Position numbers and translations under genes: made by a program. A stretch of 64,000 bases of DNA, from the NCBI GenBank assembly GCA_013203315.1, contig JABMQJ010000020.1:6774-70773 (forward strand). The letters run 5' to 3'. The notes beneath the pieces were generated by a model. The model was given only the letters and a program-made list of their open reading frames with translations. It made no database searches and had not been told where the DNA came from. This DNA is from Candidatus Omnitrophota bacterium (GTDB lineage Bacteria > Omnitrophota > Gorgyraeia > JABMRN01 > RBG-13-46-9). This document shows positions 20,078 through 36,162 of this stretch, in pieces (position 1 is the first letter of the stretch; each line of letters starts with the position of its first letter).

Positions 20078-22357
20078 TTACTGAACCCCGCTGATTCTAA
20101 GGGCTACATCTTTCTCAAACGACGGAACCTTTATTGCCATTCCCTTGCCTGATGAAACAGCTTTTTCTCGATACAAGGGCCTCGCCTTCCATGTATCCCA
20201 CCATTCTATGCTATATTCCCCATTGGGTAAATCAAGAACTTCTAATGTTGCCCCTTTTACCTCTTGTGGTTTAATTCCTTTATAACTATTGTACCAATTA
20301 CTCTCTTTATTTTGTATCCAGAATATTGCCTCTTTCCCGCACTGCAATCCCAACACGCGGATATCCATGGATGAGCCTTTTTTATAATTTGTGAGCACAA
20401 CCTTTTTAATAGAAAGCCAATCTTTTCCGACATTCTCCAAGCGTATGATATGCTCACCTTGAGGAATGTTAATTTTACAGTCCTCCATGTAGTCATACTG
20501 ATATATCCCCCACTCATCCCGGTATCTCCTTCGCTTCCAATTCCCCTTACCCTCGGGAGTCTCCCCGGGGAATTCTCTGCTAAACATTTTTTGGCCATCC
20601 ACATATACGTTGAGCACTGCACGCACAGAAACTTGATCTACTGTGATAATAAATTCTCCTTTGCGGGGGTAATTAACTCTGAAAACAGGACATACGCGTA
20701 TATCCTGTTTATCCATACCATGAAGATACATATTTAATTTACCGCCTTTTAAGGTTCCGTTGTTTAATGCTTCGATTTCTCTATCATCTTCATTACCCCA
20801 ATCGTCCGCTACAGGTATAGATACATCGCGATTACCTATTGCTCCTTGGTGTACATTGTCTTCGGGGTATACGTGAAATTTGGCTCTACCCCAACCATTT
20901 CTGGGTAAATTTAAATTCTTAACAAATAAAGAAAATGTCTTGTAGTGCTCGTATAAATTTTTTTGATTAATATAATCATCCCACCACCAATTCATCGCAC
21001 CGCCAAGGGCTTGAGAAAAAAGACCCGCCCATAGGCAGTTATGAATATGAATTCCGTTTCCTACGGTATCGTAGAATTTATCGCTTTTCGTACTATCTAT
21101 GCCGTATTCGCCTATCAAAGATGGTTTACGATACTTCGTTACATACTGCATTGTTTTATAATTGATAGTATCAACCAGATCACAAAAGGCCCCTCTGCGT
21201 CCATAAATGTGGACCTGCGAGAAATCTATAGAGGGTAATTTCCAGATTTCATCTTCGTTAAAACCATTGAACTCGAGCATCCCTATGCTTGTTGTCACAA
21301 GATGGCCATGAGGATCGATATCCTTTATATACTCTGACATTTCTTTAACCCAAAACACGGGGGCATTTGTTTCATTCCATAATTCAAAAGCGAGTAAGTT
21401 TTTATAGGCTCCCCACCGGGCGACAATATAACGTAATCGTTTTTTATAATACTCTTGCGCGTTTTCATTTGTCCAAAATTCTGCGGGGCTTACACAGGGT
21501 CCGCCATTAGACGCATTATATGGATTGCGACCCCATTCCGGGACGCCCCAAAATATTTTATGTGCGGCTAACTCTTTGTAATTTCCCAGAACCAGGATAA
21601 CATATAACCCCTTTTTGTCTGCCTCCTTCAAAATATGATCGAGGCGCCATGCGTTCCGGAGATTATAGCGCCCCAATCCGGAGAAACCCTCCTTTGAAAC
21701 ATTATTTTTAGCCCATTCCAGAGCCAAATTCCAGGAAACCATCCAAATGCGAACAATATTACACCCATTATCAGATAATTTTTCAAAATAAGAATCGTAT
21801 GCGTATGTCTGCTTACGATCTGTCCAGCCTACATTCTCTCCTATGCCAAAGTAGATTTCACCGGAATCAAAAAACAAATAAGGTGTAGAGCTAGCTCGCA
21901 GAAATCCTGGCTTAATAGATTTCGTAACATTAAAAGTTTCTTCTTTGGTTCTCAATTTTCTCTTTCCGAATTGTGCTGTTAGAAAAACACGATAAATTCC
22001 TATCTCTCTTGGCGTAAAGCGTACCTTCCACTGAGGAGAACCTACTGCTTCCAATATCTCACGGCCTTCTGATAAATCTCTTGAAAACCCCTGGTAATAG
22101 AATGCAGGTATAATTAATTCATTCTGGTTCGGTGAGATAAAATGGGCTTTTATATCGACCTGGTTAGGATCAAAGGGGTTATCAAAAACACCTTTCGTAT
22201 CTATATCAAGCTCCAAGATATCAAATTGCTTAACCGGATGTTCTATTTTAACAAATGAAATATGAGGACCATCTTTCGCAATGACTGCACAGGACGCGAA
22301 AATAATCAATAAAATAAGAATCGGTTTTACTAGCATTTTTAGCTGTCCATATTTCAT
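20078..22357 (-). CDS. secreted glycoside hydrolase, GH5-family TIM barrel with N-terminal Ig-like (DUF5060-like) domain
   Basis: 759 aa with signal peptide. 'AFELWNETN' (clan GH-A catalytic acid/base NE motif) and a second Glu in 'LIGEYGID'. Confidence 0.5.
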   Translation of the reverse strand: MKYGQLKMLVKPILILLIIFASCAVIAKDGPHISFVKIEHPVKQFDILELDIDTKGVFDNPFDPNQVDIKAHFISPNQNELIIPAFYYQGFSRDLSEGREILEAVGSPQWKVRFTPREIGIYRVFLTAQFGKRKLRTKEETFNVTKSIKPGFLRASSTPYLFFDSGEIYFGIGENVGWTDRKQTYAYDSYFEKLSDNGCNIVRIWMVSWNLALEWAKNNVSKEGFSGLGRYNLRNAWRLDHILKEADKKGLYVILVLGNYKELAAHKIFWGVPEWGRNPYNASNGGPCVSPAEFWTNENAQEYYKKRLRYIVARWGAYKNLLAFELWNETNAPVFWVKEMSEYIKDIDPHGHLVTTSIGMLEFNGFNEDEIWKLPSIDFSQVHIYGRRGAFCDLVDTINYKTMQYVTKYRKPSLIGEYGIDSTKSDKFYDTVGNGIHIHNCLWAGLFSQALGGAMNWWWDDYINQKNLYEHYKTFSLFVKNLNLPRNGWGRAKFHVYPEDNVHQGAIGNRDVSIPVADDWGNEDDREIEALNNGTLKGGKLNMYLHGMDKQDIRVCPVFRVNYPRKGEFIITVDQVSVRAVLNVYVDGQKMFSREFPGETPEGKGNWKRRRYRDEWGIYQYDYMEDCKINIPQGEHIIRLENVGKDWLSIKKVVLTNYKKGSSMDIRVLGLQCGKEAIFWIQNKESNWYNSYKGIKPQEVKGATLEVLDLPNGEYSIEWWDTWKARPLYREKAVSSGKGMAIKVPSFEKDVALRISGVQ

Positions 22358-23142
22358 TGCTTTCTCCCCTTATTGTCTTTTTTTAGTTTTTCTAATAGAA
22401 GGTAATAAAAAAATATAATTGCGTCTTTTAAGTATCTTTTCCAAAGCCTATACGGTTCCATCATCACCCGCCAGAACCATTCCAAACCTATTTTCTGCAT
22501 CCACTCTGGCGCTCTCTTTATATTACCTGAAAGAAAGTCAAAGGATGCCCCAACCGCCATTAATACAGAAACGCCGAGTTCATCTTTATGCTTCCAGATC
22601 CATTTCTCCTGTTTGGGTGCTCCTAAGCCTACAAATAAAAATTCCGGTTTTTTCTCCTTTATCACTTTTACTATCTTTTGGTTTTCCCTCTCATCCTTCT
22701 CAAACCCGAAAGGAGGTGAGTGTGTTCCAACAATTTCTAATTCGGGATACTTCATTTTTAAAATATTACCCGCTTTCTCGGCCACCCCCGGTTTAGCCCC
22801 TAAGAAAAATATTTTATACTTATTCAGAGCAGCGGTCCTGCATAAAGCAGGGAATAAATCTGAGCCCGAGATTTTTGATTTCAGAGGTTTCCCCAGAAAT
22901 TTCGCGGCCCATAGTATCGGCACTCCATCGGGTAGAAGAAAAGAGGCCCTATCTAGAATCGAAAAGAATTCAGTATCCCTTTTTGCCCTTACTAAGACAT
23001 TAACAGGCACGGGGAATATGGTAATATTCCTGCTTGTCCGAACTGAATCTGTGATTACATCCACAAATCTGCCGAAATTGACAGAGACAAATTTCAGGTT
23101 AAAAATCTTCTCGAAATTTATAATGTTAATATCTTTTTGCAT
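22354..23142 (-). CDS. WecB/TagA/CpsF-family glycosyltransferase
   Basis: 262 aa. 'FLGAKPGVAEKAG...GLGAPKQEKWIWKHKDELGVSVLMAVGASFDFLSG' is the family signature. Confidence 0.6.
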   Translation of the reverse strand: MQKDINIINFEKIFNLKFVSVNFGRFVDVITDSVRTSRNITIFPVPVNVLVRAKRDTEFFSILDRASFLLPDGVPILWAAKFLGKPLKSKISGSDLFPALCRTAALNKYKIFFLGAKPGVAEKAGNILKMKYPELEIVGTHSPPFGFEKDERENQKIVKVIKEKKPEFLFVGLGAPKQEKWIWKHKDELGVSVLMAVGASFDFLSGNIKRAPEWMQKIGLEWFWRVMMEPYRLWKRYLKDAIIFFYYLLLEKLKKDNKGRKQ

Positions 23143-24200
23143 TTTCCTAATACCTTGTCAACATTTATCAATTCCATACATTTTTTTCCTTTAAATCTCA
23201 AATTACAGCTTGACTTATAACAAGCCAAGCAAGGTACGGATGGCTCTATTATTTTACCTAAACCATATAATTCGAATTCATTCCTGTTAAATGCGTTATT
23301 AAAAAGCAAGACCTTTTTCTTCAAAGCAATGGCAATATGCAATGTCATAGTAACACAGGTAATAACTAAATCTGTTTGATTTACGAGGTCTGTAAATTGT
23401 TCTAAAGGAAAATATCCTATATATCGCCCCCCACTTTTTCGAGCTATTTCTTTATTTTTTTTGTGTTCTTTTCGGCCGCCTAAAATTAGAACACCATATC
23501 CGGCTTTCCTTAACTTTCTTACCAATTCCACCCATCTTGCTTTCGGATATTCTCTGACTTTCCACTGTTCTCCATATCCGGTATTTAAGCCGATTAACGG
23601 ATGAATAAATACCGGCCACTTAGTATGTTTTTCTATTTCTAAAATATATTTTTCTCCGCTAAAATCAAAACCGCAGAGCTCAAAAATCTCTTGAGGGTAA
23701 CTTTTTTTGTTCTTTTTATTTATATCGTCCCAGATTCCTGTCTTCCATTTGCTAAAAGCATTCTTGTCTATAGGGGCGCATTTACCATCTTTGAGTTCAA
23801 ATCCCTTTTTTACTTTGGCCTTTATTAATTCCGCGAGAGAACAGGCCTCTTTATCTTTATCTAGATTAAATAGAAAATCGAACTTTTGGGCGAAAAGCCA
23901 CAAAATATTCTGTAGATTAAAATCCAAAATGTTATCGACCAGAGAAGGGACAAGTTTCGGAAAACATGTAAGCCAGGATATCTCAGAATGAGGAAATTTT
24001 TCCTTAATCTTCCTTAAGATGGGGGTCGTTCTTATTATGTCTCCTGCTGCCTTTAATTTAATTATCAAAATTCTTTCTGCTACTTTATCGTAATATTTGC
24101 AATCCTCGCATTTAACTCCAAATTTCTTGTGGTACAAGCATGGAATGCCTCCCCTAAAAAACCTGCAGTCTGTTTTCACGGTCTTTGTTATATTAGCCAT
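23118..24200 (-). CDS. GT9-family (heptosyltransferase-like) glycosyltransferase with Cys-rich N-terminal extension
   Basis: 360 aa. 'ILIIKLKAAGDIIRTTPILRKIKEKFP' matches the GT9 N-terminal motif. Preceded by 'CRFFRGGIPCLYHKKFGVKCEDCKYY' (4 Cys, zinc-ribbon-like). Confidence 0.5.
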   Translation of the reverse strand: MANITKTVKTDCRFFRGGIPCLYHKKFGVKCEDCKYYDKVAERILIIKLKAAGDIIRTTPILRKIKEKFPHSEISWLTCFPKLVPSLVDNILDFNLQNILWLFAQKFDFLFNLDKDKEACSLAELIKAKVKKGFELKDGKCAPIDKNAFSKWKTGIWDDINKKNKKSYPQEIFELCGFDFSGEKYILEIEKHTKWPVFIHPLIGLNTGYGEQWKVREYPKARWVELVRKLRKAGYGVLILGGRKEHKKNKEIARKSGGRYIGYFPLEQFTDLVNQTDLVITCVTMTLHIAIALKKKVLLFNNAFNRNEFELYGLGKIIEPSVPCLACYKSSCNLRFKGKKCMELINVDKVLGKCKKILTL

Positions 24201-24204: not shown

Positions 24205-25185
24205 CTATACTCCTTCTAGCATTTGTAGTAATATGGAAAATTTTTGACGCCAATTGTCTCTGGCCTCTTTTTGCAGCATAGCCATCTCCTCTTCTAAACG
24301 AGAAGTATTATTCTTGAGACGCATTATGCCTTTAATTATATCTTCTGACGTATTGCGCACATGGACGGTGCCTTTATTAAAAAAGCGGCGTATCACACCC
24401 CAATCAGAAGCGATAAGAGGCTTACCTACCGAAACAGCTTCATACATGCCCGCACACAGCGTATTATCGACGGTACATAAAACCATTATTGCATCGGCGG
24501 CTCGCAATAAAGAAAAGTATGGCCGGGGTTCGTCCATGTAACCGGTAAATGTTACGTTAGGAGGGGGGTTCTTTAAAATATCTTTTTTTGCATATATCGT
24601 ATTTCCGGTAATATAAAAATTGACGTTCTGTAAACGCTGAGCCGCTAAAAGGATTTCCTCTATCGGTTCGTCGAAAGAGAAGGTATTTATTACAGTGACG
24701 CTAAATCCGTCTTTCAATTTTATAGATTGCGTAGGAGGAAAATCCGGTATACAATCTTCTAATACAAAGCTCCGAGCGCCCCACCTTTTCAACATGTTAC
24801 ATAACTCATCATTTGTGGCTATATTAAGAAATGCTTTTCTTGCTAAAAACTTAAATAGAAAATTAAACCACTTCCACTTTGGATCTAAAAAAGCGCCGGT
24901 TGCAGAATCGATTATAAAATGCGTTCCTGATATTCTGGTATATACAAAGGCGATTAAAGGCAGGAAAACCGGCGGATTTTCAACGATGACGAAATCCGGA
25001 CGTTCACGTTGTAAGACCCAGAAAGTTTTTAGTGCTTGAAAAATATATTTTATGGGGGCAATAAGTGGAAATTTAAATTTAAAAAAATGAATTAGATAAA
25101 GAGGGGCCTGAATCTGGCAGGCGAAAGTCTGGCTTCGTCTGCTTAAAGGTTGCCATCCTATAATAATAATTTTTTTAGGTTTCAT
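24205..25185 (-). CDS. glycosyltransferase (GT-B fold, group-1-like)
   Basis: 326 aa. C-terminal GT-B nucleotide-sugar-binding-like region ('GMYEAVSVGKPLIASDWGVIRRF'). Sits inside a polysaccharide operon. Confidence 0.4.
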   Translation of the reverse strand: MKPKKIIIIGWQPLSRRSQTFACQIQAPLYLIHFFKFKFPLIAPIKYIFQALKTFWVLQRERPDFVIVENPPVFLPLIAFVYTRISGTHFIIDSATGAFLDPKWKWFNFLFKFLARKAFLNIATNDELCNMLKRWGARSFVLEDCIPDFPPTQSIKLKDGFSVTVINTFSFDEPIEEILLAAQRLQNVNFYITGNTIYAKKDILKNPPPNVTFTGYMDEPRPYFSLLRAADAIMVLCTVDNTLCAGMYEAVSVGKPLIASDWGVIRRFFNKGTVHVRNTSEDIIKGIMRLKNNTSRLEEEMAMLQKEARDNWRQKFSILLQMLEGV

Positions 25186-25190: not shown

Positions 25191-26210
25191 TTACACGGGT
25201 ATTTTATAACAACCTAAGCATTTACACCCTTCCAGGGATTCTTCGATATTTTTGTCCCTCTTAATAGATAACTGCCTTAGGTTTTTCATCGTTTTGTTAT
25301 TCCATTCACTTAGAATTGAATTTTCAATAATATTGCCAAAAGAAAACGGACTTACCAATCCGCTCGTGCAACACGCTTTCAATTCACCTGTCCATGCCAC
25401 ATTTAAAACATACCAGAGCCAATAACATGGTTTCCCTTTTGGCAATTTATCCCTCAACATTGTTCTCATGCTTTGCAAATTATCTTCTCGCGATTCTTTA
25501 ACTAATAGCCGGTCAACGCCTAATTTTTCAGAAAGTTTTTTGATTTGTTCCAGCTCGTGAATACTTTCTTCAAAAATGATAAACTGGCTTTCTATGAAAG
25601 GTGTCTTACTTTTAAGTGATTTCTTAAGCTTTACTATTTCCTTGATGCTAGAGAGTACCGTTTCAAATCGAGCTCCTACCCTTACCTTTTCATAGGTCTC
25701 TTTGGTGGCCCCGTCAAGAGAAATGATCAAATAATCTAAGCCTGCGTCAATAACCTTTTTAAAATCGTCCGGTTTAAAGGTTGTGAAATTTGTACTTATC
25801 GCACTAATGATATTATTTTTGGTCGCGTATTCTATCATGGAAAAGATATCGGAGTTAAGGAAGGATTCGCCTAAACCGTCGAGCCGAACTAAAATAAGGT
25901 AGTCTTTCAATTGATCTATTACCTTTTTGTAATTAGCAAATGAAAGGTACCCTTTAGGTATAGGGTTTTTACCGGAACCTGTATAGCAAATCGGACATCT
26001 TAAATTACAGAGGTTGGTCGGTTCGAAGTGTAGGACAAAAGGCGTCGATTTTAACGTAACTTTTTTTATGCGTCGTTCTAATTCCGCGTGTAACGTATTA
26101 AAAACCTTTTTTAATCCAATCCTTTTCGGAGAATTTACGATAGGAGCTAGATAACGCGTGAATGTTTGGCCGAGTGCGAAAGCAGTATTGGTTAATGATA
26201 AATATTGCAT
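25191..26210 (-). CDS. radical SAM / SPASM-domain enzyme
   Basis: 339 aa. 'CNLRCPICY' CxxxCxxC cluster. C-terminal extra cysteines ('KACCTSG...CKCLGC'). Confidence 0.6.
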   Translation of the reverse strand: MQYLSLTNTAFALGQTFTRYLAPIVNSPKRIGLKKVFNTLHAELERRIKKVTLKSTPFVLHFEPTNLCNLRCPICYTGSGKNPIPKGYLSFANYKKVIDQLKDYLILVRLDGLGESFLNSDIFSMIEYATKNNIISAISTNFTTFKPDDFKKVIDAGLDYLIISLDGATKETYEKVRVGARFETVLSSIKEIVKLKKSLKSKTPFIESQFIIFEESIHELEQIKKLSEKLGVDRLLVKESREDNLQSMRTMLRDKLPKGKPCYWLWYVLNVAWTGELKACCTSGLVSPFSFGNIIENSILSEWNNKTMKNLRQLSIKRDKNIEESLEGCKCLGCYKIPV

Positions 26211-26232
26211 CTTTTTCCTTTTTAATTTTCGT

Positions 26233-27648
26233 TTAGTCCAATGGTATATTTCGCCACAAATCGCATTTTTCTAATATCAATTCACGAATATTCTTATTTT
26301 TGAGTCGGCACGTTAATCTTATAGAATAATATTTCAGCCTTTCAATTATAATACGCAGTAAAGAACGTCTGAATATATTCGATCTCACTGTACTCCAAAA
26401 TGCTGCTTTGCGAAATAACCTGTAGGCTTCAATTCGCTCTTTTTTCGAGAACTCCTTCGTTTCAAAAGCGGGTTCGATCTTGTCTTCCTGTAAGGTGGGG
26501 GGAAAATACATCGCGTCTTTATTAAGGTTGATTCCCTGTTCTTCCGCCCATTTCCATAGTTCTGTTTTTGGATAAGGCACTACTGAATTCACATAAATAG
26601 CGTTCAATTTCAATGATTTCATGAACTCTATGCTTCTTTTTACCGAATCTGTCGTGTCATTAATATTCCCTACCATAAAGCAACCTGTAACATAAAAGCC
26701 TTTCTTTTTCGCCAGCCTTGCTGCATAAGCAATCTTTTCAAGCGACTCGCCCTTTTGCATGCTCCTCAGCACTTTTTCGTCCCCGCTTTCAATGCCAAAA
26801 CCTATAGCCCTACAACCAGCGGATAGCATCGCAGAAAGTATTTCGTCCGTTACTAAATCGGCTCTCACCCCCTGGGTGGCCGTCCATTTAATCTGAAGGT
26901 TCCTTTTTCGAATCTCGTCGCATAGTTTTAGTATTCTGTTCCTATCAACTAAAAGATTGTCTCCATCGATATAAAATTTTTTAAACCCGAATTTCTTCAT
27001 ATCCCATTGTATCTCAGCGATTATGCTTTCCCAGGATCTTGGCCGCCAAAGACGACCCTGGATATCTTTAACGCAGCAAAAATTGCACCGATAGGGACAT
27101 CCCCTTGAATCAGCGATTGGTAAAAAATTGTATTTTTTAACCTCCAATAAATCCCACGCCGGAAACGGCAATTCATCTAAATTATGGTTAAATTCTCTAG
27201 GTTGATTTTTCCTTACTTCACCGCCTTCCCGATAGATGAGGCCTTTTACGGACTCTAAACCTGTTTTTCTTTTGAGGGCGTTGCAAAGTTCCTGGACGGT
27301 TTTTTCGCCTTCCCCGAAAATTTCAAAATCTATCTCGCGATAGATTTTTAAAACCTCTTCTTGCATAATGCAGGCGTGCGGTCCTCCGATCAGTATTTTC
27401 GCCGGTGTTATCCTCTTTATTTTTCTAATAAAATCTATAACCATAGGCTCTGAAAAGGACATCATCGGCAGCCCTACTATATCAGGATTAAACTGTTTTA
27501 TTTTATCAATACACGCATGGTCGATATTAGTATCCACAATGGATACGCACTCCCCGGCTGACCGAAGGCTTGAAGCCAAATATGTCAGATTTATCGGCGG
27601 ATAGCGAATAGGATCAAAATATATCGGATTCAATAATAAAATATTCAT
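26233..27648 (-). CDS. B12-binding-domain radical SAM enzyme (class B)
   Basis: 471 aa. N-terminal cobalamin-binding Rossmann-like domain, then 'ADSRGCPYRCNFCC' radical-SAM cluster. Confidence 0.65.
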   Translation of the reverse strand: MNILLLNPIYFDPIRYPPINLTYLASSLRSAGECVSIVDTNIDHACIDKIKQFNPDIVGLPMMSFSEPMVIDFIRKIKRITPAKILIGGPHACIMQEEVLKIYREIDFEIFGEGEKTVQELCNALKRKTGLESVKGLIYREGGEVRKNQPREFNHNLDELPFPAWDLLEVKKYNFLPIADSRGCPYRCNFCCVKDIQGRLWRPRSWESIIAEIQWDMKKFGFKKFYIDGDNLLVDRNRILKLCDEIRKRNLQIKWTATQGVRADLVTDEILSAMLSAGCRAIGFGIESGDEKVLRSMQKGESLEKIAYAARLAKKKGFYVTGCFMVGNINDTTDSVKRSIEFMKSLKLNAIYVNSVVPYPKTELWKWAEEQGINLNKDAMYFPPTLQEDKIEPAFETKEFSKKERIEAYRLFRKAAFWSTVRSNIFRRSLLRIIIERLKYYSIRLTCRLKNKNIRELILEKCDLWRNIPLD

Positions 27649-27666
27649 TGTAGGGAAACGGTTGTG

Positions 27667-28779
27667 TTATGCATTATATTGGTACAGATTGCAGCATCGC
27701 GAACAAACCGGTAATAAGTTTACTTCTTTAATTTTTTTTCTGAATTCCCTTGCTTTTTTGCCATTCCAAATTGCAAGAAATGAATCCTTCTTTACATTGC
27801 CTAGCACATAATCCGGGAAATCGCCACAAAAGACTATATCTCCATTATATCGGATATCTGCCCTGGCCCATAAAGAAAAACATTTTTTCTGAGACATCTT
27901 TGATGTATTGTTATAAAAATTTGCGATTTCTGCCGGCGAAAGTTCAGGAAGAAAGGTAATATGCAATCCTTCGTTTCTTTTGGTTTGTATATTTTTAATA
28001 ATGCCTGAAAGCCTTTTAAGATTCATGTTAATTTCTTCTTTCCTGAAACCCCTCCAGGAGGCCGCCTCTATACCAAAAAGCTTACTGCAAACTTCTTCAT
28101 ATCGCCTGCCCATGTGAAGAGGTATATTCCACCCATATATAAAATGGATGCCATCAATTCTAAGTGTTTTTGATAGCTCGACCATCTTCTCAAGTGTGTT
28201 ATAAGAATCCTCTGTTATAACCGTATTTATTATTATTTTAGGATAGCGAGTTTTCTTTTGATCCCGCGCTTTCACAAGAGCCCTGATGCTTTCAATTGTT
28301 TTATCATAAGCGCCTGCATTCCTTATTTTATCATTTACCTCCCTTGGTCCATCTAAAGAAATTTCTATTTCATCGAGCCTTGTTCTAACAACTTCGCATG
28401 CATAAGGTGATAGGAGGGTCCCATTTGTAATTACGAGGCAACGTAAATCCTTGGATTTAATGTAGGAAATGAGTTGCATGATTTTTGGATACAAAAATGG
28501 TTCTCCTCCCCAGATAATAATCCTTTTCGGGCATGTTTCGTCTATAATCTTTTTCCATTGTTCGAAGCGTAGTTCTTCCGATTTCAGACCGGATACCGCT
28601 TCGGTTTTGAAATGGCCTTGCTCTCCCCACTGGGCGCACATCTTACATCTCAGGTTACACCGCATTGTTGGTAAAAGCGCTAATTGGGTTGGCGGAAAAG
28701 AATAACCATCCTTCAAAAAATAATACCCTAAAAACATCTTACGGAAATAAAGCAGTTTTCGAAGTCTCTTATACATCAT
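27667..28779 (-). CDS. radical SAM / SPASM-domain enzyme
   Basis: 370 aa. 'MRCNLRCKMCAQ' cluster. C-terminal 'CSRCCNLYQY'. Confidence 0.6.
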   Translation of the reverse strand: MMYKRLRKLLYFRKMFLGYYFLKDGYSFPPTQLALLPTMRCNLRCKMCAQWGEQGHFKTEAVSGLKSEELRFEQWKKIIDETCPKRIIIWGGEPFLYPKIMQLISYIKSKDLRCLVITNGTLLSPYACEVVRTRLDEIEISLDGPREVNDKIRNAGAYDKTIESIRALVKARDQKKTRYPKIIINTVITEDSYNTLEKMVELSKTLRIDGIHFIYGWNIPLHMGRRYEEVCSKLFGIEAASWRGFRKEEINMNLKRLSGIIKNIQTKRNEGLHITFLPELSPAEIANFYNNTSKMSQKKCFSLWARADIRYNGDIVFCGDFPDYVLGNVKKDSFLAIWNGKKAREFRKKIKEVNLLPVCSRCCNLYQYNA

Positions 28780-30232
28780 CCACCACTCTCAAGTTTAAAT
28801 TTGAAAGTTTAGAAAAAATAATTTTTTTCAGTATAGAAAAATCTTCTTTGGATATTAACGAAAATAAAAAAGATAACGCAATGAATGGAATTACAAAAAT
28901 AAGTTTGGCCCATACCTGCTGTGGTTTAAAGATAAGAAATAAACCAAACGAGATAATAAATGGAAATAATGGTTTTATAAGAATTGTTTTTTTAATACCT
29001 ATTTTATATTTCTCTAATAATCCAGCCGCCATAATCAGGTGTAAGGCATGTAAAACGAGAAGTGCATATACAGCCCCGATAAGTCCCATGCGGGGAACCA
29101 ATATAAGGCTTACGCCTATGCCAACTATGACTTGTATTATATGCAATAACATGGCCACAAAAGAAAAGCCTCCTCCGAGTAACACAAGCCAGAGACTATA
29201 ACCCAGCAAATAAAAATATGACACAATCATTAGGTAGAAAAATATTTGTGAAACATGCCCATATTGTGATGAAAAAAGAACGGTTATAATTTCCTTATGA
29301 AACATGCCTGCCAAAAAAGCGAAAAAGGCCACGATTAAACCCAATACCCTTAATGCATGATACACAAGATTCTTGATTTCGACCGATTTACCCTTTGAAA
29401 ATAACTCGGCGATTTGTGGGAAAAATACAGAACGAAACGCTCCGAATACGCGCTGTAAATGCTCGGGAATTCTGCTTGCGACTTCAAAAAGCGCCAAAGA
29501 AGCAGGCCCAAGAAAGCCCGCAATTATCAGGGCGTATATTCTTCCGCTGAAAAACCCTAAAATACTTTCTATTCCTATAGGCCAACCGAATTTTATTATT
29601 TTCTTAAAATGAGAAGTTTTAAGTTGCCCCCGAGAAATACCGCGAGGGAATAGAAGTATGCAACCAATTAAAAGAGAAAACGCAAAAGCATACAATGCGC
29701 CAATGATGTCCATTTTAAAAATTATAAGGAAGACTATCACCAGTAACATTCTTGATAACGCGATTGAAATATCGGCAAACGCTATTTGTTTATATCGATA
29801 AAACCCCTGAAGCACATGATTGAATAGAAATTCAAAACTTTGAGCTAAGTAACATATTATAATAAATGGAAAAAAACGCAGGAGCAATTCAGATTTAAAA
29901 ATAGTGTAAATAAGAGGCCTAACCGCATATAATATAGGAATCGTTATAACGGTAATGCCTATTTTTATAACTAAGAGTGATTTGGTCCAATTCTTTTTTT
30001 CATCGCCTTCTGCTGAAACAATAAATTTGCTGGCTGAAAAATTAAGTCCGAGATCACTCATGACAACAAAAAATCCGACAATAACCTGTATCAAAAGATA
30101 AATCCCAAATCGTTCTATGGGAATATTGCGCGCGATAATCATAAAGGTCGCTAGTCCCAGGAGCAATCTTATTCCGGTTGAAGTAAGCATTAATGACATA
30201 TTTCCTAAAAATCTATCCCTTATATTTTTCAT
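28769..30232 (-). CDS. polysaccharide flippase (Wzx/PST, MOP superfamily)
   Basis: 487 aa, about 12-14 TM helices. Typical oligosaccharide-unit flippase topology within an EPS operon. Confidence 0.55.
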   Translation of the reverse strand: MKNIRDRFLGNMSLMLTSTGIRLLLGLATFMIIARNIPIERFGIYLLIQVIVGFFVVMSDLGLNFSASKFIVSAEGDEKKNWTKSLLVIKIGITVITIPILYAVRPLIYTIFKSELLLRFFPFIIICYLAQSFEFLFNHVLQGFYRYKQIAFADISIALSRMLLVIVFLIIFKMDIIGALYAFAFSLLIGCILLFPRGISRGQLKTSHFKKIIKFGWPIGIESILGFFSGRIYALIIAGFLGPASLALFEVASRIPEHLQRVFGAFRSVFFPQIAELFSKGKSVEIKNLVYHALRVLGLIVAFFAFLAGMFHKEIITVLFSSQYGHVSQIFFYLMIVSYFYLLGYSLWLVLLGGGFSFVAMLLHIIQVIVGIGVSLILVPRMGLIGAVYALLVLHALHLIMAAGLLEKYKIGIKKTILIKPLFPFIISFGLFLIFKPQQVWAKLIFVIPFIALSFLFSLISKEDFSILKKIIFSKLSNLNLRVVDDV

Positions 30233-30244
30233 ATTTTCCTAAGA

Positions 30245-30973
30245 TTAAGTTTTTCCAAAAAAACGGTTATAATGAATTTTGTAAATAAACCGGGCTATGG
30301 TATCGTCTTTTTCTACTTCTATTCGCTTAAGTAAAAAGAGATCCGTTGTCTTGTCATTTTTACCCGGCATGCTCGTGCAAGCACATGTATAACCTGCTTC
30401 TTTCACCAGGTATTTTAAATGTTCGTTAAACTTCGAGCATGGATAGCAGAAAAAATGCTCTCTTTGGTTCAGCGCAGATTCCAGTGTCTGCTTGGATCTT
30501 TCAAGCTCATCCATTATGTCCGGGTCAGAAAGAGACGGTAATTCAACATGATTAACGGTGTGAGAATGAAAAGAAAATCCATGCACGGAAAGAAATCGAA
30601 TTTCATCCCAAGACATAATGTTTATATCGTCTTTCGCCCCTTCGTCCCAATCATTAACACTGCCTATTTTGCCTGTAGGTATAAATATCGTGGCCTTAAA
30701 ACCATAGGACTTTAATATGTCTTTCGCGGAATTTAAAAAGCTTCTGTAGCCATCATCAAAAGTCAAAATGACGGACTTGCTTGGAATATTTTTTTTCGCT
30801 TTTAAAATTTCCGCAAGTTCGCCCAGCTGGAATACAGAATATTTGTTTTTATACAGATATTCCATTTGCCTCGCGAAATCCTGAGGACTTACATAAAAAC
30901 GTTTTAGCTTGTTTTTCATGGAAGTCTTAGCTATATGATGATAGCATAAAATTAGACAACCTCGTCTTAACAC
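30245..30973 (-). CDS. polysaccharide deacetylase (NodB-homology / CE4)
   Basis: 242 aa. 'ILTFDDGYRSF' Asp-Asp motif and 'HSHTVNHVEL' His motif. Confidence 0.6.
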   Translation of the reverse strand: MLRRGCLILCYHHIAKTSMKNKLKRFYVSPQDFARQMEYLYKNKYSVFQLGELAEILKAKKNIPSKSVILTFDDGYRSFLNSAKDILKSYGFKATIFIPTGKIGSVNDWDEGAKDDINIMSWDEIRFLSVHGFSFHSHTVNHVELPSLSDPDIMDELERSKQTLESALNQREHFFCYPCSKFNEHLKYLVKEAGYTCACTSMPGKNDKTTDLFLLKRIEVEKDDTIARFIYKIHYNRFFGKT

Positions 30974-32031
30974 GGATATTCCTTTTGCATGAAAAAATAA
31001 GGTTCGGTTATTTTTTCGCCTTTTATGGGTTTGAATTCATCTCCGCCATACAGAGCGGCATATCTTCGCCACGGGCCGTCGCATATGAAATAGTAGCGGC
31101 ATTTCTTGCATTCCGGAAACATTGTGCTGTACCTTCCGCATATCGCTTTAATTTGCATCCTGTGTAAAAATTCAGACACCGGAAATAGCTTCAGACTATG
31201 GATAGATACTCGCCGCATTCCTCTCAGAATGATGAAACCTATCGTGCTAAACAGGCCATTTTGAATAACCGCTCGCTTTAGATAATCCCATTCCTCCGGA
31301 TCGTACTGAATCTGATGCATATTATGAATATATCGCTCGTAACCCTCCATAAGGCAGAAAGGTATATACATCACATTTACCTTGATTCTATCTTTCAAAA
31401 TATCGACCGCTTCCTTCACGTAGGGAGCCGCCTTTTTCAGCATGGGCGCAAGGTCTTTATTGTATATTTCGTGACAGACGCAGGGGTTTAAATTAATAAG
31501 ACTCACTACTTCCGGGCCAATTCCTCTTATGAGGCGGGCGATATCTGGCAGGCGCTGATAGTTAAATTGCGTAATGACAGAATTTATCCTAATCCTTACT
31601 CCCAAAATCCCTGCGTTTTCGATAGCCTTTAAACATTTTTCAAAACTTCCCTTCGCACCCACGATATAATCGTGAGATTCGGCATTGTCTCCATGAATAG
31701 AAAACAGAATATCACTTACACCAGCTTCTTTTAATGCCTTAAAGAACTTGATATCCGCAAGGAGTATACCGTTTGTAATAAGGCATACTTTTTTAAAACC
31801 GAGCGAAAGCGCGTAGGCAACGATTGAAATGAGATCTTTATTCATTGTAGGTTCACCGCCTGTAAAGTCGATTCCTTCTATCCCGAGTCTTCTGGAAGCG
31901 CGCAATTGTTTTTTAATTAAATTTAAATTAAAAAAATTCGATTTTAGAAATGGGCGGTAATAGCAAAATTTACACGCTGCGTTACACCTGTAGCCCAAAT
32001 TAATGTCAACCTTTTTATTCAGTTGCATCAT
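30967..32031 (-). CDS. radical SAM enzyme (SPASM/twitch-like C-terminus)
   Basis: 354 aa. 'YRCNAACKFCYY' cluster. Additional C-terminal Cys pairs ('CKKCRYYFIC'). Confidence 0.6.
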   Translation of the reverse strand: MMQLNKKVDINLGYRCNAACKFCYYRPFLKSNFFNLNLIKKQLRASRRLGIEGIDFTGGEPTMNKDLISIVAYALSLGFKKVCLITNGILLADIKFFKALKEAGVSDILFSIHGDNAESHDYIVGAKGSFEKCLKAIENAGILGVRIRINSVITQFNYQRLPDIARLIRGIGPEVVSLINLNPCVCHEIYNKDLAPMLKKAAPYVKEAVDILKDRIKVNVMYIPFCLMEGYERYIHNMHQIQYDPEEWDYLKRAVIQNGLFSTIGFIILRGMRRVSIHSLKLFPVSEFLHRMQIKAICGRYSTMFPECKKCRYYFICDGPWRRYAALYGGDEFKPIKGEKITEPYFFMQKEYPC

Positions 32032-32978
32032 TTTATAAACCTTTCGTAAATCATTCCGGCATTAACAAATAATTTCATTATGAAGGAAAAGCATATTATA
32101 ATCAGCGGATTTTCTTTTTTCCTGAACCTAAATACATCCCTAACGGGGCCCGCGAACGTAGAAAATATTATGTAAGGGACTGATCGCTGAGCTTTAAATA
32201 CATAAGCCCTGGGCATGCCGGAAAAACGAAGTGTGCCGGCATACATACCCCGTCCGTACTCGAATAACCTCTTCAGTAATCCTAAGGTTGTATTTCTGCC
32301 ATAATGTTTTACTGAAATCTCGGGATAATATATATTCTTGTAACCTGCCATTAATATCTTAAGGCCGATACTTACATCTTCAAATGATCTATAATGTGTA
32401 TCTTCAAAAAGACCGATATTTTCTAGAATTTTTTTGCGATAGCATGCGTTGGTTGTGCGGAAATAATAACAAAAAGGAGAGTTTAATTTATCATAATACT
32501 CATCAGCTAAAAACCTGACCCGTTCGATATTGCGTATCATTTTGCAGTTACCTACTTCAAAAGTATTACCCCCCACACTGCCTATATTTTCATCCTGGTT
32601 AAAGGCTCTAATAAAAACCTCTACCCAATGGGTGCACACTTCACAGTCATCATCTGTGAATGCGACGAGATCGTGTGAACTTGCCTTTACTCCGGCATTT
32701 CGGTTATCCGCCAGACTCACATTGGCTGTCTTTACCACCTTGATCACTGATTTCCGCTTAATATACCTTTTTACAAGCGCATCGACATCCTCTTCTCCGC
32801 TATTCACAATAATAACCTCATCGGGCAATCGGGTCTGATTCAGGAATAATGAATCCAAGCACTTTCTCAAGAGCTTATTCCTGTTATAAGTCAAAATAAC
32901 AACTGAGATTTTCATGTGAGCCACCCCGAAAACCTGCTTGTCCGACCGAGGTTTACGATTAAACCGCAACAGAACCAA
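32028..32978 (-). CDS. GT2-family glycosyltransferase
   Basis: 316 aa. 'ISVVILTYNR' and 'FTDDDCEV' (DxD) motifs. Confidence 0.65.
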   Translation of the reverse strand: MVLLRFNRKPRSDKQVFGVAHMKISVVILTYNRNKLLRKCLDSLFLNQTRLPDEVIIVNSGEEDVDALVKRYIKRKSVIKVVKTANVSLADNRNAGVKASSHDLVAFTDDDCEVCTHWVEVFIRAFNQDENIGSVGGNTFEVGNCKMIRNIERVRFLADEYYDKLNSPFCYYFRTTNACYRKKILENIGLFEDTHYRSFEDVSIGLKILMAGYKNIYYPEISVKHYGRNTTLGLLKRLFEYGRGMYAGTLRFSGMPRAYVFKAQRSVPYIIFSTFAGPVRDVFRFRKKENPLIIICFSFIMKLFVNAGMIYERFIK

Positions 32979-34357
32979 AGCATGAGTAGGCGTCCTAAGG
33001 AAATGGACTCAACCAAACCATGAACAGAGAAGGCGAATAGCCCGCTCACAAGCCCCATTGTTACAACGGACGCGATCCCCTCGGATTTCTTTATTAAGGA
33101 CGACCATCCTTTCTTTAAAACGGAAAAAATAAATAATAGAAAAGCCCCAAGCGCGAAAATTCCCATTTCAGCGGCGATAAGCAGATAAAGATTGTGCACC
33201 TGGTAAAAGAAAAAAGACGTTATTCCACTTACCGAAACATCGTACAGATACATAACAAGTATATAATTACCGGCTCCGATACCTAAAAGCGGGTGTGAGA
33301 ACACGATATTCAAAGCGATTTGCATCAGAGGCACGCGCATCGCCAGCGAACCGTAATCATAACTCGTAAAACGGGATAAAATCATATCGGCCATGAAAAA
33401 TAGAGTTATCAAGGAAAGCGTGATTATAAAAAATGATCTTATGAGCATTTTCATACTAAACCGCGCCTTTAATAGATTCAGGAAGAGGAGAGCCCCCATT
33501 CCCGTAAAGAAACTGATCAATCCTCCTCTTGAGAATGTGAGATTGCAAACAAAAAAGCAAAAGACAAAAATTGTGAAAATTACGATTTTATATAAAATTT
33601 TCATTCGAAAAAGTAAAAGCGCCGCTAAAAGTGGCAGGACAAAATCCATATACATAAACCATAGCATGTTCGGCGAAGGAAGGGTACCGGTAATTCTAAA
33701 CACTGATTGGATTCTCAATCTCTGGACATCGATCTTCAGCGGTTCCCCTAACCACTCCAACCCCAAGGGGCTCCCGGTATGCCACTGTATAAAAGCAATA
33801 ATACTCTGAATTAAGGCCCCTGCTATTAAAATAAAGAGAATTGTCTTTAAGGTTTGTTTTTTTATCGGATAGTGCGCGATATAAAAAAATATAAGAAATC
33901 CTCTAAGAAGAATTAACGATTGGTAAATACATTGTTTCTTATCTACGGCGTTAAGGCATGAGACGAAAGAAAGCAATACCAGAAAAAACAGAAAAAGCGA
34001 CGCGCTTTTGCTAACGGTAACCTTCTCGGTAACACGCCTTCCAAGTATTTCTGCGACCCATAAAATATATAAACTTAAAATAACAAAATCAATTATACGT
34101 ATCCCTATCCATAAACTCGGTTCGTCGGGATAAATATAAAATTTGCCCAGATGAAACGGGATGATGAATACCAATAAATAAAGAAGCCCTTCTCGAATGC
34201 CTACTGTAAGGAGCGAGACGAAAATAAATATTAATCCTGCGACTAAAATTAACCAGTAAAGCGGCTGTATGGGAAGTAAAAGTATAACGGAAGAAAAGAT
34301 AACGAGAATAAAGGTAATAATAATGAAAGGAAAATTTTTGAATTCATGCGTTATCAT
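32912..34357 (-). CDS. O-antigen ligase/polymerase-like (Wzy) integral membrane protein
   Basis: 481 aa, about 10-12 TM helices with a large periplasmic loop. Lies next to the chain-length regulator. Confidence 0.5.
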   Translation of the reverse strand: MITHEFKNFPFIIITFILVIFSSVILLLPIQPLYWLILVAGLIFIFVSLLTVGIREGLLYLLVFIIPFHLGKFYIYPDEPSLWIGIRIIDFVILSLYILWVAEILGRRVTEKVTVSKSASLFLFFLVLLSFVSCLNAVDKKQCIYQSLILLRGFLIFFYIAHYPIKKQTLKTILFILIAGALIQSIIAFIQWHTGSPLGLEWLGEPLKIDVQRLRIQSVFRITGTLPSPNMLWFMYMDFVLPLLAALLLFRMKILYKIVIFTIFVFCFFVCNLTFSRGGLISFFTGMGALLFLNLLKARFSMKMLIRSFFIITLSLITLFFMADMILSRFTSYDYGSLAMRVPLMQIALNIVFSHPLLGIGAGNYILVMYLYDVSVSGITSFFFYQVHNLYLLIAAEMGIFALGAFLLFIFSVLKKGWSSLIKKSEGIASVVTMGLVSGLFAFSVHGLVESISLGRLLMLWFCCGLIVNLGRTSRFSGWLT

Positions 34358-34392: not shown

Positions 34393-36162
34393 TTATAGCC
34401 GTTTATAAAGAAATCCCGGCACTTCGTATCTTTGACAGTTGAGCATAATTCCCAAGCTTTTAGGCCCGACCGGAACCAATCTCTCCAATGCCATTTTTGC
34501 CACTTCCCTCCTTGTCGAACCAGCTTTAATTACAAATAGCGCATAATCAAAAGAAGATGAGATGGCCAAGGTAGCGCTATTAAGCCCGCAGCTGGACGAA
34601 TCGAAAATAATATAATCAAATTTGTTTTTGAGGTTTATAATAAAATCTTTCAATCGTTCGAAATCCAAAGGTTTATTCAAAGAATTCTCTACGCCGCTGG
34701 GAATAAAAAACAAATTATTTAAACGGGTAGTCAGGATAATATTCCGGACGCTATCTTCTTTATCCGCAAAATTGATAAGTCCGGGTTCATGGCTTGTCTC
34801 GAATAATTTATGTAAGCATGGGTGCACGGTATCCGCATCCACCAAAAGAATCTTTTTATCCACATTTTTGCTGAGTGTCAAGGCAAGATTCAAGGCAGTT
34901 ACGGTCTTACCTTCTCCTCTGGAAGAACTGGTTACCAGCAGGGCTTTAACCGGAGATGCTGAAAATACTTTAATTGCGTTTAACAATTCCTGATATGATT
35001 CAAAAACTACTCCTTCGGGTTTAGTAAATAACGTATCAACATTCGGCAAAGACCCGATTGATCCCACAATGCTATAGCCGAGATATTTCTTTATATCTTC
35101 ACGCGTATACAAACGATGATCCATATAATTGGCCCAAAACACCATCCCCATGCCGCCAAAAACTCCTAAGAAAATTGCTGCTAAAATATTTATGCGTTTC
35201 TTTGGCCAAACCGGTTTGATTGGTACGGTAGCCGGCTCGATGATCTCAATATTGCGGACCTGTCCGATTTTGTCTTTTTCCATTGCTACGGCGATCTGCA
35301 TTTCCTCCCGTTTTTTAAGAAGCATTAAATAAATTTCTTTTAAATTTTCCGTGGTATATTCCATACGGCGTAATTGCATTTTTTTTTGCGGAAAATCTTT
35401 AAGTTTTTCCTTAATATTTTGTATTTCTGTCCGGGCCGCATTTATATCAGGGTAGCCGGCTTTGTATTCTTCCAATAAGTACACAAGGTGTTTTTCTTCG
35501 TCAAATAATTTTTCCAGAGAAATCCTTGCCTCGTCTCTGAGAGAAACAATATCGTAATTTTCTTCGTAATCTCTTAATGCGGCCTCGGCGTTACCAAGGC
35601 TAACATTAACAACGTTTATCTGGGCATCTATAAACTCGAGGACACTCGAAGAACGTGTTGCCTTTATTTTAAAATAAAAGTCAACGTAATTTTTGGTAAC
35701 AGCGTTAACAATCTGGACCCCTAATAACCTGTCTTGCAAATCCAGGCGAATACTTATAAAATCCGTATTTCTTACGGGAGCGATTTTAAGTTTTCTTTTG
35801 AGAAATAATACTGCTTTTTCAAATTTATACTCGCCTTTTATGGGAAGTTTTTCGGCTAACGACAAATCTATTACTGTTTTTTCCAAAACACGGCGGGTTT
35901 TAATAAATCTGACCTGCGTGCTCATTAAAGATAATCTGTCGACAAATTCGGAAATAGGTACTTTAAGGGGGGTCAGTGGTTCTTCTTCGGCTTTTTCAAC
36001 AAGAATTATTGTTTCTGCACGGTAAAATGGCTTTAGGGCAAACGAGAGAACTGTAACAGAAATAATCAGGCCAAAAAAGAAGGTAAGAAAAATGGCTTTT
36101 CTTCGAAAAAGTATTATGCAATAATCCCGAAGCGTAGGTTGTCTACTTATATTATTTGCCAC
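34393..36162 (-). CDS. polysaccharide co-polymerase / BY-kinase (Wzc-like chain-length determinant with P-loop)
   Basis: 589 aa. N-terminal Wzz-like TM + coiled-coil. C-terminal 'SSSRGEGKTVTALNLALTL' Walker A and 'LLVDADTVHP'. Confidence 0.6.
   Translation of the reverse strand: MANNISRQPTLRDYCIILFRRKAIFLTFFFGLIISVTVLSFALKPFYRAETIILVEKAEEEPLTPLKVPISEFVDRLSLMSTQVRFIKTRRVLEKTVIDLSLAEKLPIKGEYKFEKAVLFLKRKLKIAPVRNTDFISIRLDLQDRLLGVQIVNAVTKNYVDFYFKIKATRSSSVLEFIDAQINVVNVSLGNAEAALRDYEENYDIVSLRDEARISLEKLFDEEKHLVYLLEEYKAGYPDINAARTEIQNIKEKLKDFPQKKMQLRRMEYTTENLKEIYLMLLKKREEMQIAVAMEKDKIGQVRNIEIIEPATVPIKPVWPKKRINILAAIFLGVFGGMGMVFWANYMDHRLYTREDIKKYLGYSIVGSIGSLPNVDTLFTKPEGVVFESYQELLNAIKVFSASPVKALLVTSSSRGEGKTVTALNLALTLSKNVDKKILLVDADTVHPCLHKLFETSHEPGLINFADKEDSVRNIILTTRLNNLFFIPSGVENSLNKPLDFERLKDFIINLKNKFDYIIFDSSSCGLNSATLAISSSFDYALFVIKAGSTRREVAKMALERLVPVGPKSLGIMLNCQRYEVPGFLYKRL

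Follow-up and report, generated by a model that had tools for sequence, protein, structure and literature searches.

What do four radical S-adenosylmethionine (rSAM) enzymes do in the middle of a bacterial polysaccharide locus? The question is raised by a stretch of 64,000 nucleotides from a Candidatus Omnitrophota bacterium (GenBank assembly GCA_013203315.1, contig JABMQJ010000020.1, positions 6,774 to 70,773), called the window here. By open reading frame (ORF) calling and Pfam, positions 18526–36977 of the window, on the minus strand throughout, form a complete Wzx/Wzy-type polysaccharide locus of 15 proteins. In the order of transcription, these are Wza, a Wzc-like protein, a Wzy_C protein, a GT2 glycosyltransferase, rSAM-D, a CE4 deacetylase, Wzx, rSAM-C, rSAM-B, rSAM-A, a GT4 and a GT9-like glycosyltransferase, a WecG/TagA-type transferase, a DUF5060/GH5-like protein, and a WbaP-like enzyme. 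The answer that we favor, with a probability of roughly 0.7, is that the locus encodes a Wzx/Wzy-dependent capsule or exopolysaccharide pathway in which the four cytoplasmic rSAM proteins would act as sugar-tailoring enzymes. The locus itself is a real, unusual variant of the Wzx/Wzy type and holds at least one uncharacterized enzyme family.

All four rSAM proteins carry the CxxxCxxC motif within a Radical_SAM domain (PF04055, 59–88 bits against a cut-off of 29.5). If rSAM genes make up 1–2% of all genes, we estimate the chance of finding four in seven consecutive genes to be of the order of 1e-5 or less, and such a density would far exceed any plausible genomic background. The spacing across 25191–32031 is 5, 22, 18, or 12 nucleotides (nt), or the genes overlap by 11, 7, or 4 nt. 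GT2, rSAM-D, and CE4 are translationally coupled: an ATGA is common to the stop codon of the GT2 gene and the start codon of the rSAM-D gene, and the stop codon of rSAM-D overlaps the GTG start of CE4. The N-terminal B12-binding domain of rSAM-B (PF02310, residues 16–121) scores 67.8 bits against a cut-off of 32.1, and rSAM-A and rSAM-C pass the Pfam SPASM model PF13186 with 39.7 and 54.7 bits (cut-off 21.5). No Pfam SPASM match was obtained for rSAM-D despite its invariant C-terminal cysteines (C226, C308, C311, and C317). The preliminary description of this stretch had proposed a full Wzx/Wzy toolkit at 18.5–37 kb, four rSAM genes with particular motifs and a CE4 gene in tight or overlapping spacing, a cobalamin domain in one of the four, and Cys-rich C-termini of the SPASM or twitch type in three, and each of these elements was reproduced, the third Cys-rich C-terminus being that of rSAM-D. 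Across 18.5–37 kb, Pfam revealed none of the classical genes for nucleotide-sugar tailoring, such as an SDR or an aminotransferase gene. Furthermore, none of the four rSAM proteins reaches a curated NCBIfam cut-off, so no function can be transferred to them from a named family.

The strongest pattern concerns rSAM-D and its relatives. A word-indexed search at E ≤ 1e-10 returned 139 relatives, the nearest being 97% and 61% identical, with about 35 more near 40% from Bdellovibrionota, Elusimicrobiota, and others. When one genome was scanned for each species, 416 genomic relatives were obtained, and a profile search of 1.84 billion representatives at E ≤ 1e-30 gave 2,913 representative clusters. 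With tblastn against plasmids, no relative above 28% identity was found. From the 416 genomic relatives, 80 loci holding 87 D genes were fetched, and their ORFs were classified with our own iterated hidden Markov models (HMMs), for which sequences of the window and of loci annotated with Pfam served as seeds. The hosts of these loci belong to Margulisiibacteriota, Bdellovibrionota, Elusimicrobiota, Omnitrophota, Nitrospirota, Desulfobacterota, Planctomycetota (Brocadiia), Patescibacteria, Actinomycetota, and Gammaproteobacteria, including Thiocapsa roseopersicina DSM 217, and to several DPANN archaea.

The coupling of D to glycosyltransferases is family-wide. A recognized glycosyltransferase directly adjoins 49 of the 87 D genes (on the same strand in 43), and glycosyltransferases account for 27% of the ORFs at ≤ 1.5 kb from D against 6–7% beyond 4 kb. 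Other rSAM genes are likewise concentrated around D, at 13–14% of the ORFs within 4 kb and about 6% farther out: at least one further rSAM gene is present in 45 of the 80 loci, at least two in 25, and at least three in 14, with B12-domain rSAM genes in 17 loci and SPASM-type genes in 15. Full-length D domains are joined to GT2 or GT4 catalytic domains in six uninterrupted ORFs, five of them checked by Pfam, from an Omnitrophota single amplified genome, three Brocadiia genomes, one deltaproteobacterium, and one Woesearchaeote. Pfam also recognizes rSAM and GT2 domains together in the protein P0114. Two Bdellovibrionota loci place D with an FAD oxidase, SPASM and B12 rSAM genes, SDR epimerases, several transferases, and a CE4 gene. 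Genes for export, flipping, or priming are found in L015 (Wza, Wzc, and Wzx), L017 (Wzx, with two D genes), and L005 (WbaP and WecG). Among cultured hosts, Nocardioides mangrovi GBK3QG-3 has GT4, D, SDR, and an NDP-sugar epimerase/dehydratase in this order, and T. roseopersicina has GT4 and D. The feature kept beside D is thus "a glycosyltransferase" and no one particular transferase. These gene contexts, together with those of the relatives of rSAM-A, rSAM-B, and rSAM-C described below, support the assignment of the four rSAM proteins to glycan biosynthesis, and not to a pathway for peptides made on the ribosome and modified after translation (RiPPs) or to RNA modification.

The D family is well defined in sequence. 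In an alignment of 21 sequences, the cysteines of the SAM cluster (C16/C20/C23), C226, and a CxxCx5C group (C308/C311/C317) are invariant, the last being consistent with one predicted auxiliary cluster, and the signature motif QIQYDP(D/E)EWDY is present. The family motifs CNxxCxFCYY, YxPxCxxxGYE, Q-x-x-[YF]-D-[PS]-x-[ED]-[WT]-[DN], and CxxCx5C were re-read in the Nocardioides and Thiocapsa members. Among NCBIfam models, the scores for rSAM-D were 110 and 99 bits for HxsC4 and HxsC, 96 for MoaA, and 86 for BlsE, none at the cut-off. The solved relative found by sequence search of the Protein Data Bank (PDB) was BlsE (7e-20), with the rSAM core alone aligned. The AlphaFold model of rSAM-D is confident (predicted local distance difference test, pLDDT, 89; predicted template modeling score, pTM, 0.90), and Foldseek again placed BlsE first (E 4e-12, template modeling [TM] score 0.53–0.57, 220 columns), followed by viperins, GDGT-MAS, SkfB, MoaA, and DesII. 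Because the sequence and fold matches cover the rSAM core alone, we regard the C-terminal third as family-specific. The nearest cores are those of enzymes that work on nucleotide-attached sugars. The assignment of rSAM-D as a BlsE-type cytosylglucuronate decarboxylase was rejected, with 86 bits against a cut-off of 400 (TIGR04466) and an alignment spanning residues 10–170.

Other arrangements also occur among D-family members. Many of the top family matches in the representative search (P0375–P0521) are 600–1,400 amino acids (aa) long with 3–7 separate matched stretches, several rSAM cores apparently being fused. At locus L083, a B12-rSAM and a D domain are joined in a fusion, and a second D domain is fused to DUF362 and ferredoxin. 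At L053 (Peredibacter sp. HCB2-198), L057 (Halobacteriovorax sp. CON-3), and L064 (a Bdellovibrionales metagenome-assembled genome, MAG), 7–9 rSAM genes of about 270–410 aa, some of them in tandem runs, surround a distant D member, and these loci of predatory bacteria share a conserved small ORF of 70–85 aa. In contrast to most of the family, which is linked to glycosyltransferases, these loci may encode a system for modifying peptides.

Most sampled relatives of the other three rSAM proteins also lie among glycan genes. The NCBIfam matches of rSAM-A and rSAM-C are scattered over several SPASM families (tungsten-enzyme maturase, NirJ, AhbD, mycofactocin, and others), with 60–112 bits against cut-offs of 265–650. 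The sole solved relative of rSAM-A was GDGT-MAS (1.5e-7, rSAM core alone aligned). rSAM-A lies downstream of a B12 enzyme in the window and in loci L088, L090, and L092. The contig of a 62%-identical relative has the same order of B, A, and GT4; another relative's locus comprises AsnB, GT4, GT2, B12-rSAM, and A, and in a third, a PMT_2 GT-C transferase is surrounded by five rSAM genes. Since the order recurs in the loci of rSAM-A relatives, the B–A pair represents a small conserved module. For rSAM-C, 1,387 relatives were found at E ≤ 1e-15, and four contexts were sampled. One relative lies in a Scalindua polysaccharide locus with CE4, rSAM, DegT, Wzx, and acetyl- and sulfotransferase genes, one adjoins a UDPGT transferase, and one stands between two GT2 genes. 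The rSAM-C family has four invariant auxiliary cysteines (C300, C318, C359, and C362) in a truncated SPASM or twitch-like domain, and the retention of four alone implies one cluster. Its solved relative is CteB (2e-9, core-only alignment), and its model (pLDDT 86.5) superposes on SuiB, BlsE, SkfB, DesII, and anSME at TM 0.55–0.65, and also on MoaA. As peptide-directed and sugar-directed enzymes score alike, the fold is neutral as to the substrate of rSAM-C.

rSAM-B has the class-B architecture and may bind cobalamin and use it in catalysis. AprD4 shows that a B12-type domain does not guarantee cobalamin use. The NCBIfam scores of rSAM-B against the respective cut-offs were 163/481 for BchE, 161/577.6 for HpnJ, 111/650 for HpnR, and 103/500 for AprD4; ApyD gave 144 bits, MCR glutamine methylase 138, and a lipid-biosynthesis B12-rSAM model 136. 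By these scores, rSAM-B is roughly equidistant from BchE, HpnJ, ApyD, MCR glutamine methylase, and AprD4. Its solved relatives are 9CCB (5e-23), AprD4 (5e-22), and OxsB (2e-18), all by core-only alignment. Of more than 3,200 relatives at E ≤ 1e-20, two with 37–38% identity were sampled, and these lie among genes for GT2, GT4, DegT aminotransferase, SDR, formyltransferase, CE4, pyruvyltransferase, and GT-C. In both (L084, 8175–10380; L085, 8255–10419), a class-I SAM methyltransferase gene immediately precedes the B12-rSAM gene, overlapping it in L085, and the window has no such methyltransferase gene.

The closest competitor to sugar tailoring is that the rSAM proteins, especially the SPASM-type A and C, are maturases of a RiPP, of an enzyme of the locus (in the way that anSME matures sulfatases), or of five secreted paralogues encoded directly downstream (15016–18447), and that they sit in a glycan locus by happenstance. 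It is in rSAM enzymes that modify peptides that SPASM domains are typically found; among the best neighbors by NCBIfam and Foldseek are the tungsten-enzyme maturase, NirJ, SuiB, SkfB, CteB, and anSME; and a 76-aa ORF follows the Scalindua relative of rSAM-C. The named maturase models nevertheless all score far below their cut-offs, and for anSME rSAM-C reaches 54.8 bits on TIGR03942 against 349, with no sulfatase gene found in the window by Pfam. As the preliminary description had argued, 25191–32031 offers no intergenic room for a precursor ORF, its genes being at most 22 nt apart or overlapping. Among the 15 locus proteins, Pfam detected no PqqD/RiPP recognition element (RRE) domain, leader peptidase, or peptide exporter, and the N-terminal extensions, with 38 and about 60 residues, leave too little length for an RRE, the rSAM-C model showing a single helix there. 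Small ORFs (25–89 aa) near rSAM genes, taken over all loci, formed lineage-restricted families in two or three loci and none in more than three. Relatives of the rSAM proteins, by contrast, repeatedly adjoin glycosyltransferases, and we consider a maturase role unlikely. A role in RNA or ribosomal-protein modification (MiaB, RimO, or MtaB type) was rejected, with 41–54 bits for rSAM-B against cut-offs of 251–357 and no TRAM or UPF0004 domain. The two findings that were to count against a sugar role in the preliminary description, RiPP precursor or partner genes and membership in tRNA- or rRNA-modifying families, were thus both absent from the ORF, Pfam, and NCBIfam results.

Lipid tailoring has known rSAM parallels in Tes/GDGT-MAS, HpnH/HpnJ/HpnR, and a ladderane-associated B12-rSAM, and the enzymes might instead modify the polyprenyl carrier or a glycolipid anchor to give an unusual glycolipid. 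GDGT-MAS, the only solved match of rSAM-A, comes second for rSAM-D, the scores of rSAM-B for HpnJ and the lipid-biosynthesis model are among those given above, and the PMT_2 GT-C enzyme beside one rSAM-A relative is a user of lipid-linked donors. These lipid-type scores are, however, far below the family cut-offs and cover the common rSAM core alone. Pfam found no lipid-synthesis genes in the locus, the fusions and adjacency of D involve soluble-type GT2/GT4 catalytic domains, and Wzy, Wzc, and Wza imply a polymer, so that we hold this reading to be quite improbable. We give still less credence to a non-functional association, in which unrelated cofactor or metabolic rSAM genes were gathered by chance or horizontal transfer, or to the variant in which rSAM-D modifies its partner glycosyltransferase protein. 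Some D fusions do contain protein-binding TPR repeats, and the G+C content of the locus (window 18000–38000) is 0.36–0.41 against 0.42–0.45 in the flanks, lowered G+C being usual in mosaic, horizontally exchanged surface-glycan loci. Translational coupling in the window, the order of B, A, and GT4 kept in a 62%-identical relative, and the recurrence of glycosyltransferase adjacency and fusions across many phyla all speak against these readings. PADLOC returned weak matches to viperin (pVip, core alone) and to PDC-M51A. A defense role as a prokaryotic viperin was rejected because of the glycan-locus context and the sub-threshold scores (65–74 bits against 180 for NF038283).

Several observations weigh against the assignment of the four enzymes to sugar tailoring. 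The best solved relative of rSAM-B, 9CCB, is a protein C-methyltransferase acting on MCR glutamine (PMC12931638). The fold of rSAM-C is as near to the peptide maturases SuiB, SkfB, and anSME as to BlsE and DesII, and one rSAM-C relative (L094) stands beside GH57 and SDR genes with no adjacent glycosyltransferase. Glycosyltransferase detection in the sampled loci rests on our own iterated HMMs and not on Pfam. Furthermore, the GT2 partners of D are 25–31% identical to the GT2 of the window, with weak enrichment (p = 0.03), so that they were rejected as orthologues, and the CE4 neighbor of D is not kept in the other loci.

On the sugar-tailoring reading, the pathway would operate as follows. The WbaP-like enzyme would prime polyprenyl phosphate, and the WecG/TagA, GT9, GT4, and GT2 enzymes, whose domains are evident, would build the repeat unit in an order that we infer. 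Because rSAM enzymes need SAM and a cytoplasmic reductant, modification would precede flipping by Wzx and act on nucleotide-sugar donors or on polyprenyl-PP-linked intermediates, with two tailoring modules at work, GT2–rSAM-D–CE4 and rSAM-C–rSAM-B–rSAM-A. In the first, a 5'-deoxyadenosyl radical and one auxiliary Fe–S cluster of rSAM-D would abstract a C–H hydrogen of a sugar, either in the nucleotide-sugar donor of the partner GT2 or just after its transfer. The most probable role of D is to provide or to alter the sugar on which the partner transferase works; CE4 could then strip the N-acetyl group from an amino sugar, freeing the amine on an N-acetyl-hexosamine. The C–B–A module may add further radical steps. 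For the B12-domain enzyme, the candidate reactions are C-methylation or rearrangement, and for the two SPASM/twitch enzymes A and C they are oxidation, epimerization, or cross-linking. Judging from the domain content, Wzx would flip the unit, Wzy would polymerize it, Wzc and Wza would export the polymer, and the secreted GH5-like protein would trim it.

The preliminary description had proposed that the rSAM proteins modify the sugar repeat unit. The glycan role is supported by the neighborhoods and fusions, and the assembled repeat unit as the substrate is not: viperin and BlsE, the closest folds to rSAM-D, act on nucleotide-linked sugars, and a nucleotide-sugar donor therefore fits at least as well. 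None of its suggested reactions (C-methylation, epimerization, dehydration, or ether crosslinks) is assignable. We put forward, more tentatively and at slightly less than even odds, a wider joint proposal. It holds that rSAM-D represents a large, uncharacterized family of obligate glycosyltransferase partners installing radical sugar modifications (for example, deoxygenation, epimerization, decarboxylation, C-branching, or rearrangement of the ring) in the surface glycans of DPANN archaea, a small number of cultured bacteria, and many anaerobes that have not been cultivated, and that the polymer of this locus, where rSAM-D is combined with a B12-type and two SPASM/twitch-type enzymes, contains several kinds of monosaccharide new to polysaccharides.

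Table 1. Genes of the polysaccharide locus in the window, in the order of transcription
Feature	Coordinates	Strand	Evidence
Wza-type outer-membrane polysaccharide export protein	36207..36977	-	Pfam Poly_export + SLBB
Wzc-like co-polymerase/kinase	34393..36162	-	Pfam Wzz + GNVR + P-loop ATPase (AAA_31); sequence
Wzy_C-domain membrane protein	32912..34357	-	Pfam PF04932, 60.2 bits
GT2 glycosyltransferase, NCBI protein NQU95625, 295 aa	32028..32915	-	Pfam
rSAM-D, motif CNAACKFC	30967..32031	-	Pfam Radical_SAM
CE4 polysaccharide deacetylase, without evident signal peptide	30245..30973	-	Pfam PF01522, 97.9 bits
Wzx-type flippase	28769..30232	-	Pfam Polysacc_synt, 85 bits
rSAM-C, motif CNLRCKMC	27667..28779	-	Pfam Radical_SAM + SPASM
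rSAM-B, motif CPYRCNFC	26233..27648	-	Pfam B12-binding (N-terminal) + Radical_SAM
rSAM-A, motif CNLRCPIC	25191..26210	-	Pfam Radical_SAM + SPASM
GT4 glycosyltransferase	24205..25185	-	Pfam
GT9-like (heptosyltransferase-family) glycosyltransferase	23118..24200	-	Pfam, NCBIfam, sequence
WecG/TagA/CpsF-family glycosyltransferase	22354..23142	-	Pfam PF03808, 230.6 bits
DUF5060/GH5-mannosidase-like secreted protein, 759 aa, signal peptide	20078..22357	-	Pfam
WbaP-like polyprenyl-phosphate sugar-phosphate transferase (initiating enzyme)	18526..19920	-	Pfam PF02397, 239 bits, + CoA_binding_3

The genes of the locus are listed in Table 1. The simplest reading of the Wzy_C protein is a polymerase, with a ligase or an O-oligosaccharyltransferase as possible alternatives; the polymerase role is left as a prediction because the Wzy_C domain also occurs in ligases and O-oligosaccharyltransferases. 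In the Wzc-like protein, an obvious Tyr-rich tail is absent from the C-terminus. The CE4 protein gave PgaB/IcaB/HfsH-like NCBIfam matches, all under the cut-off, and its gene has a shorter form of 224 aa in the NCBI annotation. The transferase that had been labeled "WecB" in the preliminary description belongs instead to WecG/TagA/CpsF, and the DUF5060/GH5-like protein is probably a polymer-processing hydrolase. In the GT9-like protein, a Cys-rich N-terminus (C-x9-C ... C-x2-C) that could be a metal site precedes the heptosyltransferase-like domain. Proteins of the locus are identical to NQU95619–NQU95625 from a Candidatus Omnitrophica MAG, where the NCBI names go no further than "radical SAM protein," "polysaccharide deacetylase family protein," and "glycosyltransferase," and one Logan contig carries the same locus. 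The numbers of promoters and terminators in the locus were not above those in shuffled sequence, and an Rfam scan found no cobalamin or SAM riboswitch near it.

The regions on either side of the locus are also of interest. Directly downstream, at 9611–18447 on the minus strand, are the five paralogous secreted proteins mentioned above (167–217 aa, 22–46% mutual identity). After them come a secreted protein of 274 aa and a protein of 1,497 aa that has TPR-like repeats at its N-terminus and a C-terminus rich in beta structure. No Pfam family was found for the small secreted proteins of this region, and the arrangement looks like an uncharacterized assembly system for a surface fiber, pilus, or adhesin. 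Two aptamers of the cyclic di-GMP (c-di-GMP)-I riboswitch class are located on the plus strand near these fiber-like and polysaccharide loci, at 8771–8873 (RF03167, 59.4 bits against a gathering cut-off of 59) and 9226–9313 (RF01051, 80.6 bits against 35), each with a small plus-strand ORF just 3' of it (8953–9213, 86 aa; and 9329–9610, 93 aa, with a signal-peptide-like start). Abutting upstream, at 37168–52248 on the minus strand, is a locus for the utilization of beta-mannan or manno-oligosaccharides, containing a solute-binding protein, a ROK regulator or kinase, GH116, two GH113, CBM27-like mannan-binding modules, a GH130 phosphorylase, a phosphomannomutase-like enzyme, an MFS transporter, and ABC permeases. 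Beyond it are a 2,689-aa ORF at 52363–60432 (minus strand) with no Pfam match at E ≤ 0.01 and an AcrB-family transporter gene at 60605–63745.

The chemistry of rSAM enzymes on sugars has been worked out for antibiotics (aminoglycosides, nucleosides, and desosamine) and for hopanoid head groups. In the full-text literature, we found no characterized rSAM enzyme in bacterial capsule, O-antigen, or exopolysaccharide assembly, and no such rSAM system in the literature on anammox S-layer glycans. An uncharacterized rSAM gene is contained in the Campylobacter jejuni HS:19 capsule locus (PMC8743553), the words sugar, glycan, and polysaccharide are absent from a 2026 review of B12-rSAM enzymes, and an Omnitrophota preprint notes giant proteins in which rSAM domains occur together with domains of sugar metabolism. 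The locus of the window and about 80 related loci suggest that rSAM enzymes are common in the surface-glycan pathways of uncultivated anaerobic lineages. The fusions of D to glycosyltransferases and the members in the cultivable Nocardioides and Thiocapsa provide a concrete, testable entry point. If the proposal is true, the monosaccharide repertoire known from bacteria would be wider and new biocatalysts would be available, and part of the cell-surface biology of Omnitrophota, Elusimicrobiota, candidate phyla radiation (CPR) bacteria, and DPANN archaea could be explained.

In its general plan, the locus resembles the Escherichia coli group 1 capsule and colanic acid-type Wzx/Wzy loci, with an initiating phosphoglycosyl transferase, several glycosyltransferases, Wzx, Wzy_C, a Wzc-like polysaccharide co-polymerase (PCP)/ATPase, Wza, and a secreted hydrolase. 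It differs from them in having four rSAM genes and a cytoplasmic-looking CE4 in place of the classical nucleotide-sugar tailoring genes, and in the Wzc tail described above. The tailoring enzymes can be compared with several established systems, namely HpnI/HpnK/HpnJ, ArnC/ArnD, BlsE, DesII, AprD4, GenK, and BtrN. With BlsE of blasticidin S synthesis (PDB 7VOB; TIGR04466), the rSAM core of rSAM-D alone aligns (residues 10–173 by sequence, 220–249/354 by structure), and its C-terminal Cys-rich domain has no counterpart. Compared with the viperins (CTP/UTP/GTP 3'-deoxy-3',4'-didehydro synthases), rSAM-D has an extra auxiliary-cluster domain and no defense context, besides the low scores. rSAM-B shares the B12-binding and rSAM domains of the class-B enzymes (GenK/Fom3-type C-methyltransferases, the diol dehydratase AprD4, OxsB, and 9CCB), although its distance to each is about equal and it passes no equivalog cut-off. 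rSAM-A and rSAM-C, which pass the SPASM model, are similar to the SPASM/twitch enzymes (anSME, SuiB/SkfB/CteB, and the sugar-type dehydrogenase BtrN), from which they differ in having no RRE, no peptide partner, and sub-threshold scores on named models, and, in rSAM-C, four auxiliary cysteines alone.

Parallels to the module of transferase, rSAM enzyme, and deacetylase are found in two further pathways. In hopanoid head-group tailoring, the GT2 enzyme HpnI adds GlcNAc, the deacetylase HpnK frees the amine, and the B12-rSAM enzyme HpnJ contracts the sugar ring. The logic of transferase, deacetylase, and rSAM enzyme acting on a transferred amino sugar is the same here, and HpnJ is among the two best NCBIfam matches of rSAM-B, although its score is far from the cut-off, hopanoid genes are absent, and the deacetylase is a CE4 enzyme whereas HpnK is of the YdjC type. 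In the Arn pathway, the GT2 enzyme ArnC makes undecaprenyl-phosphate-Ara4FN, from which ArnD, of the CE4 family, removes the formyl group at the cytoplasmic side. The window locus gave no Arn-family NCBIfam match and has an rSAM gene between GT2 and CE4, but it has the same succession of a GT2 (about 300 aa long, its C-terminus hydrophobic), a cytoplasmic CE4, and a flippase gene.

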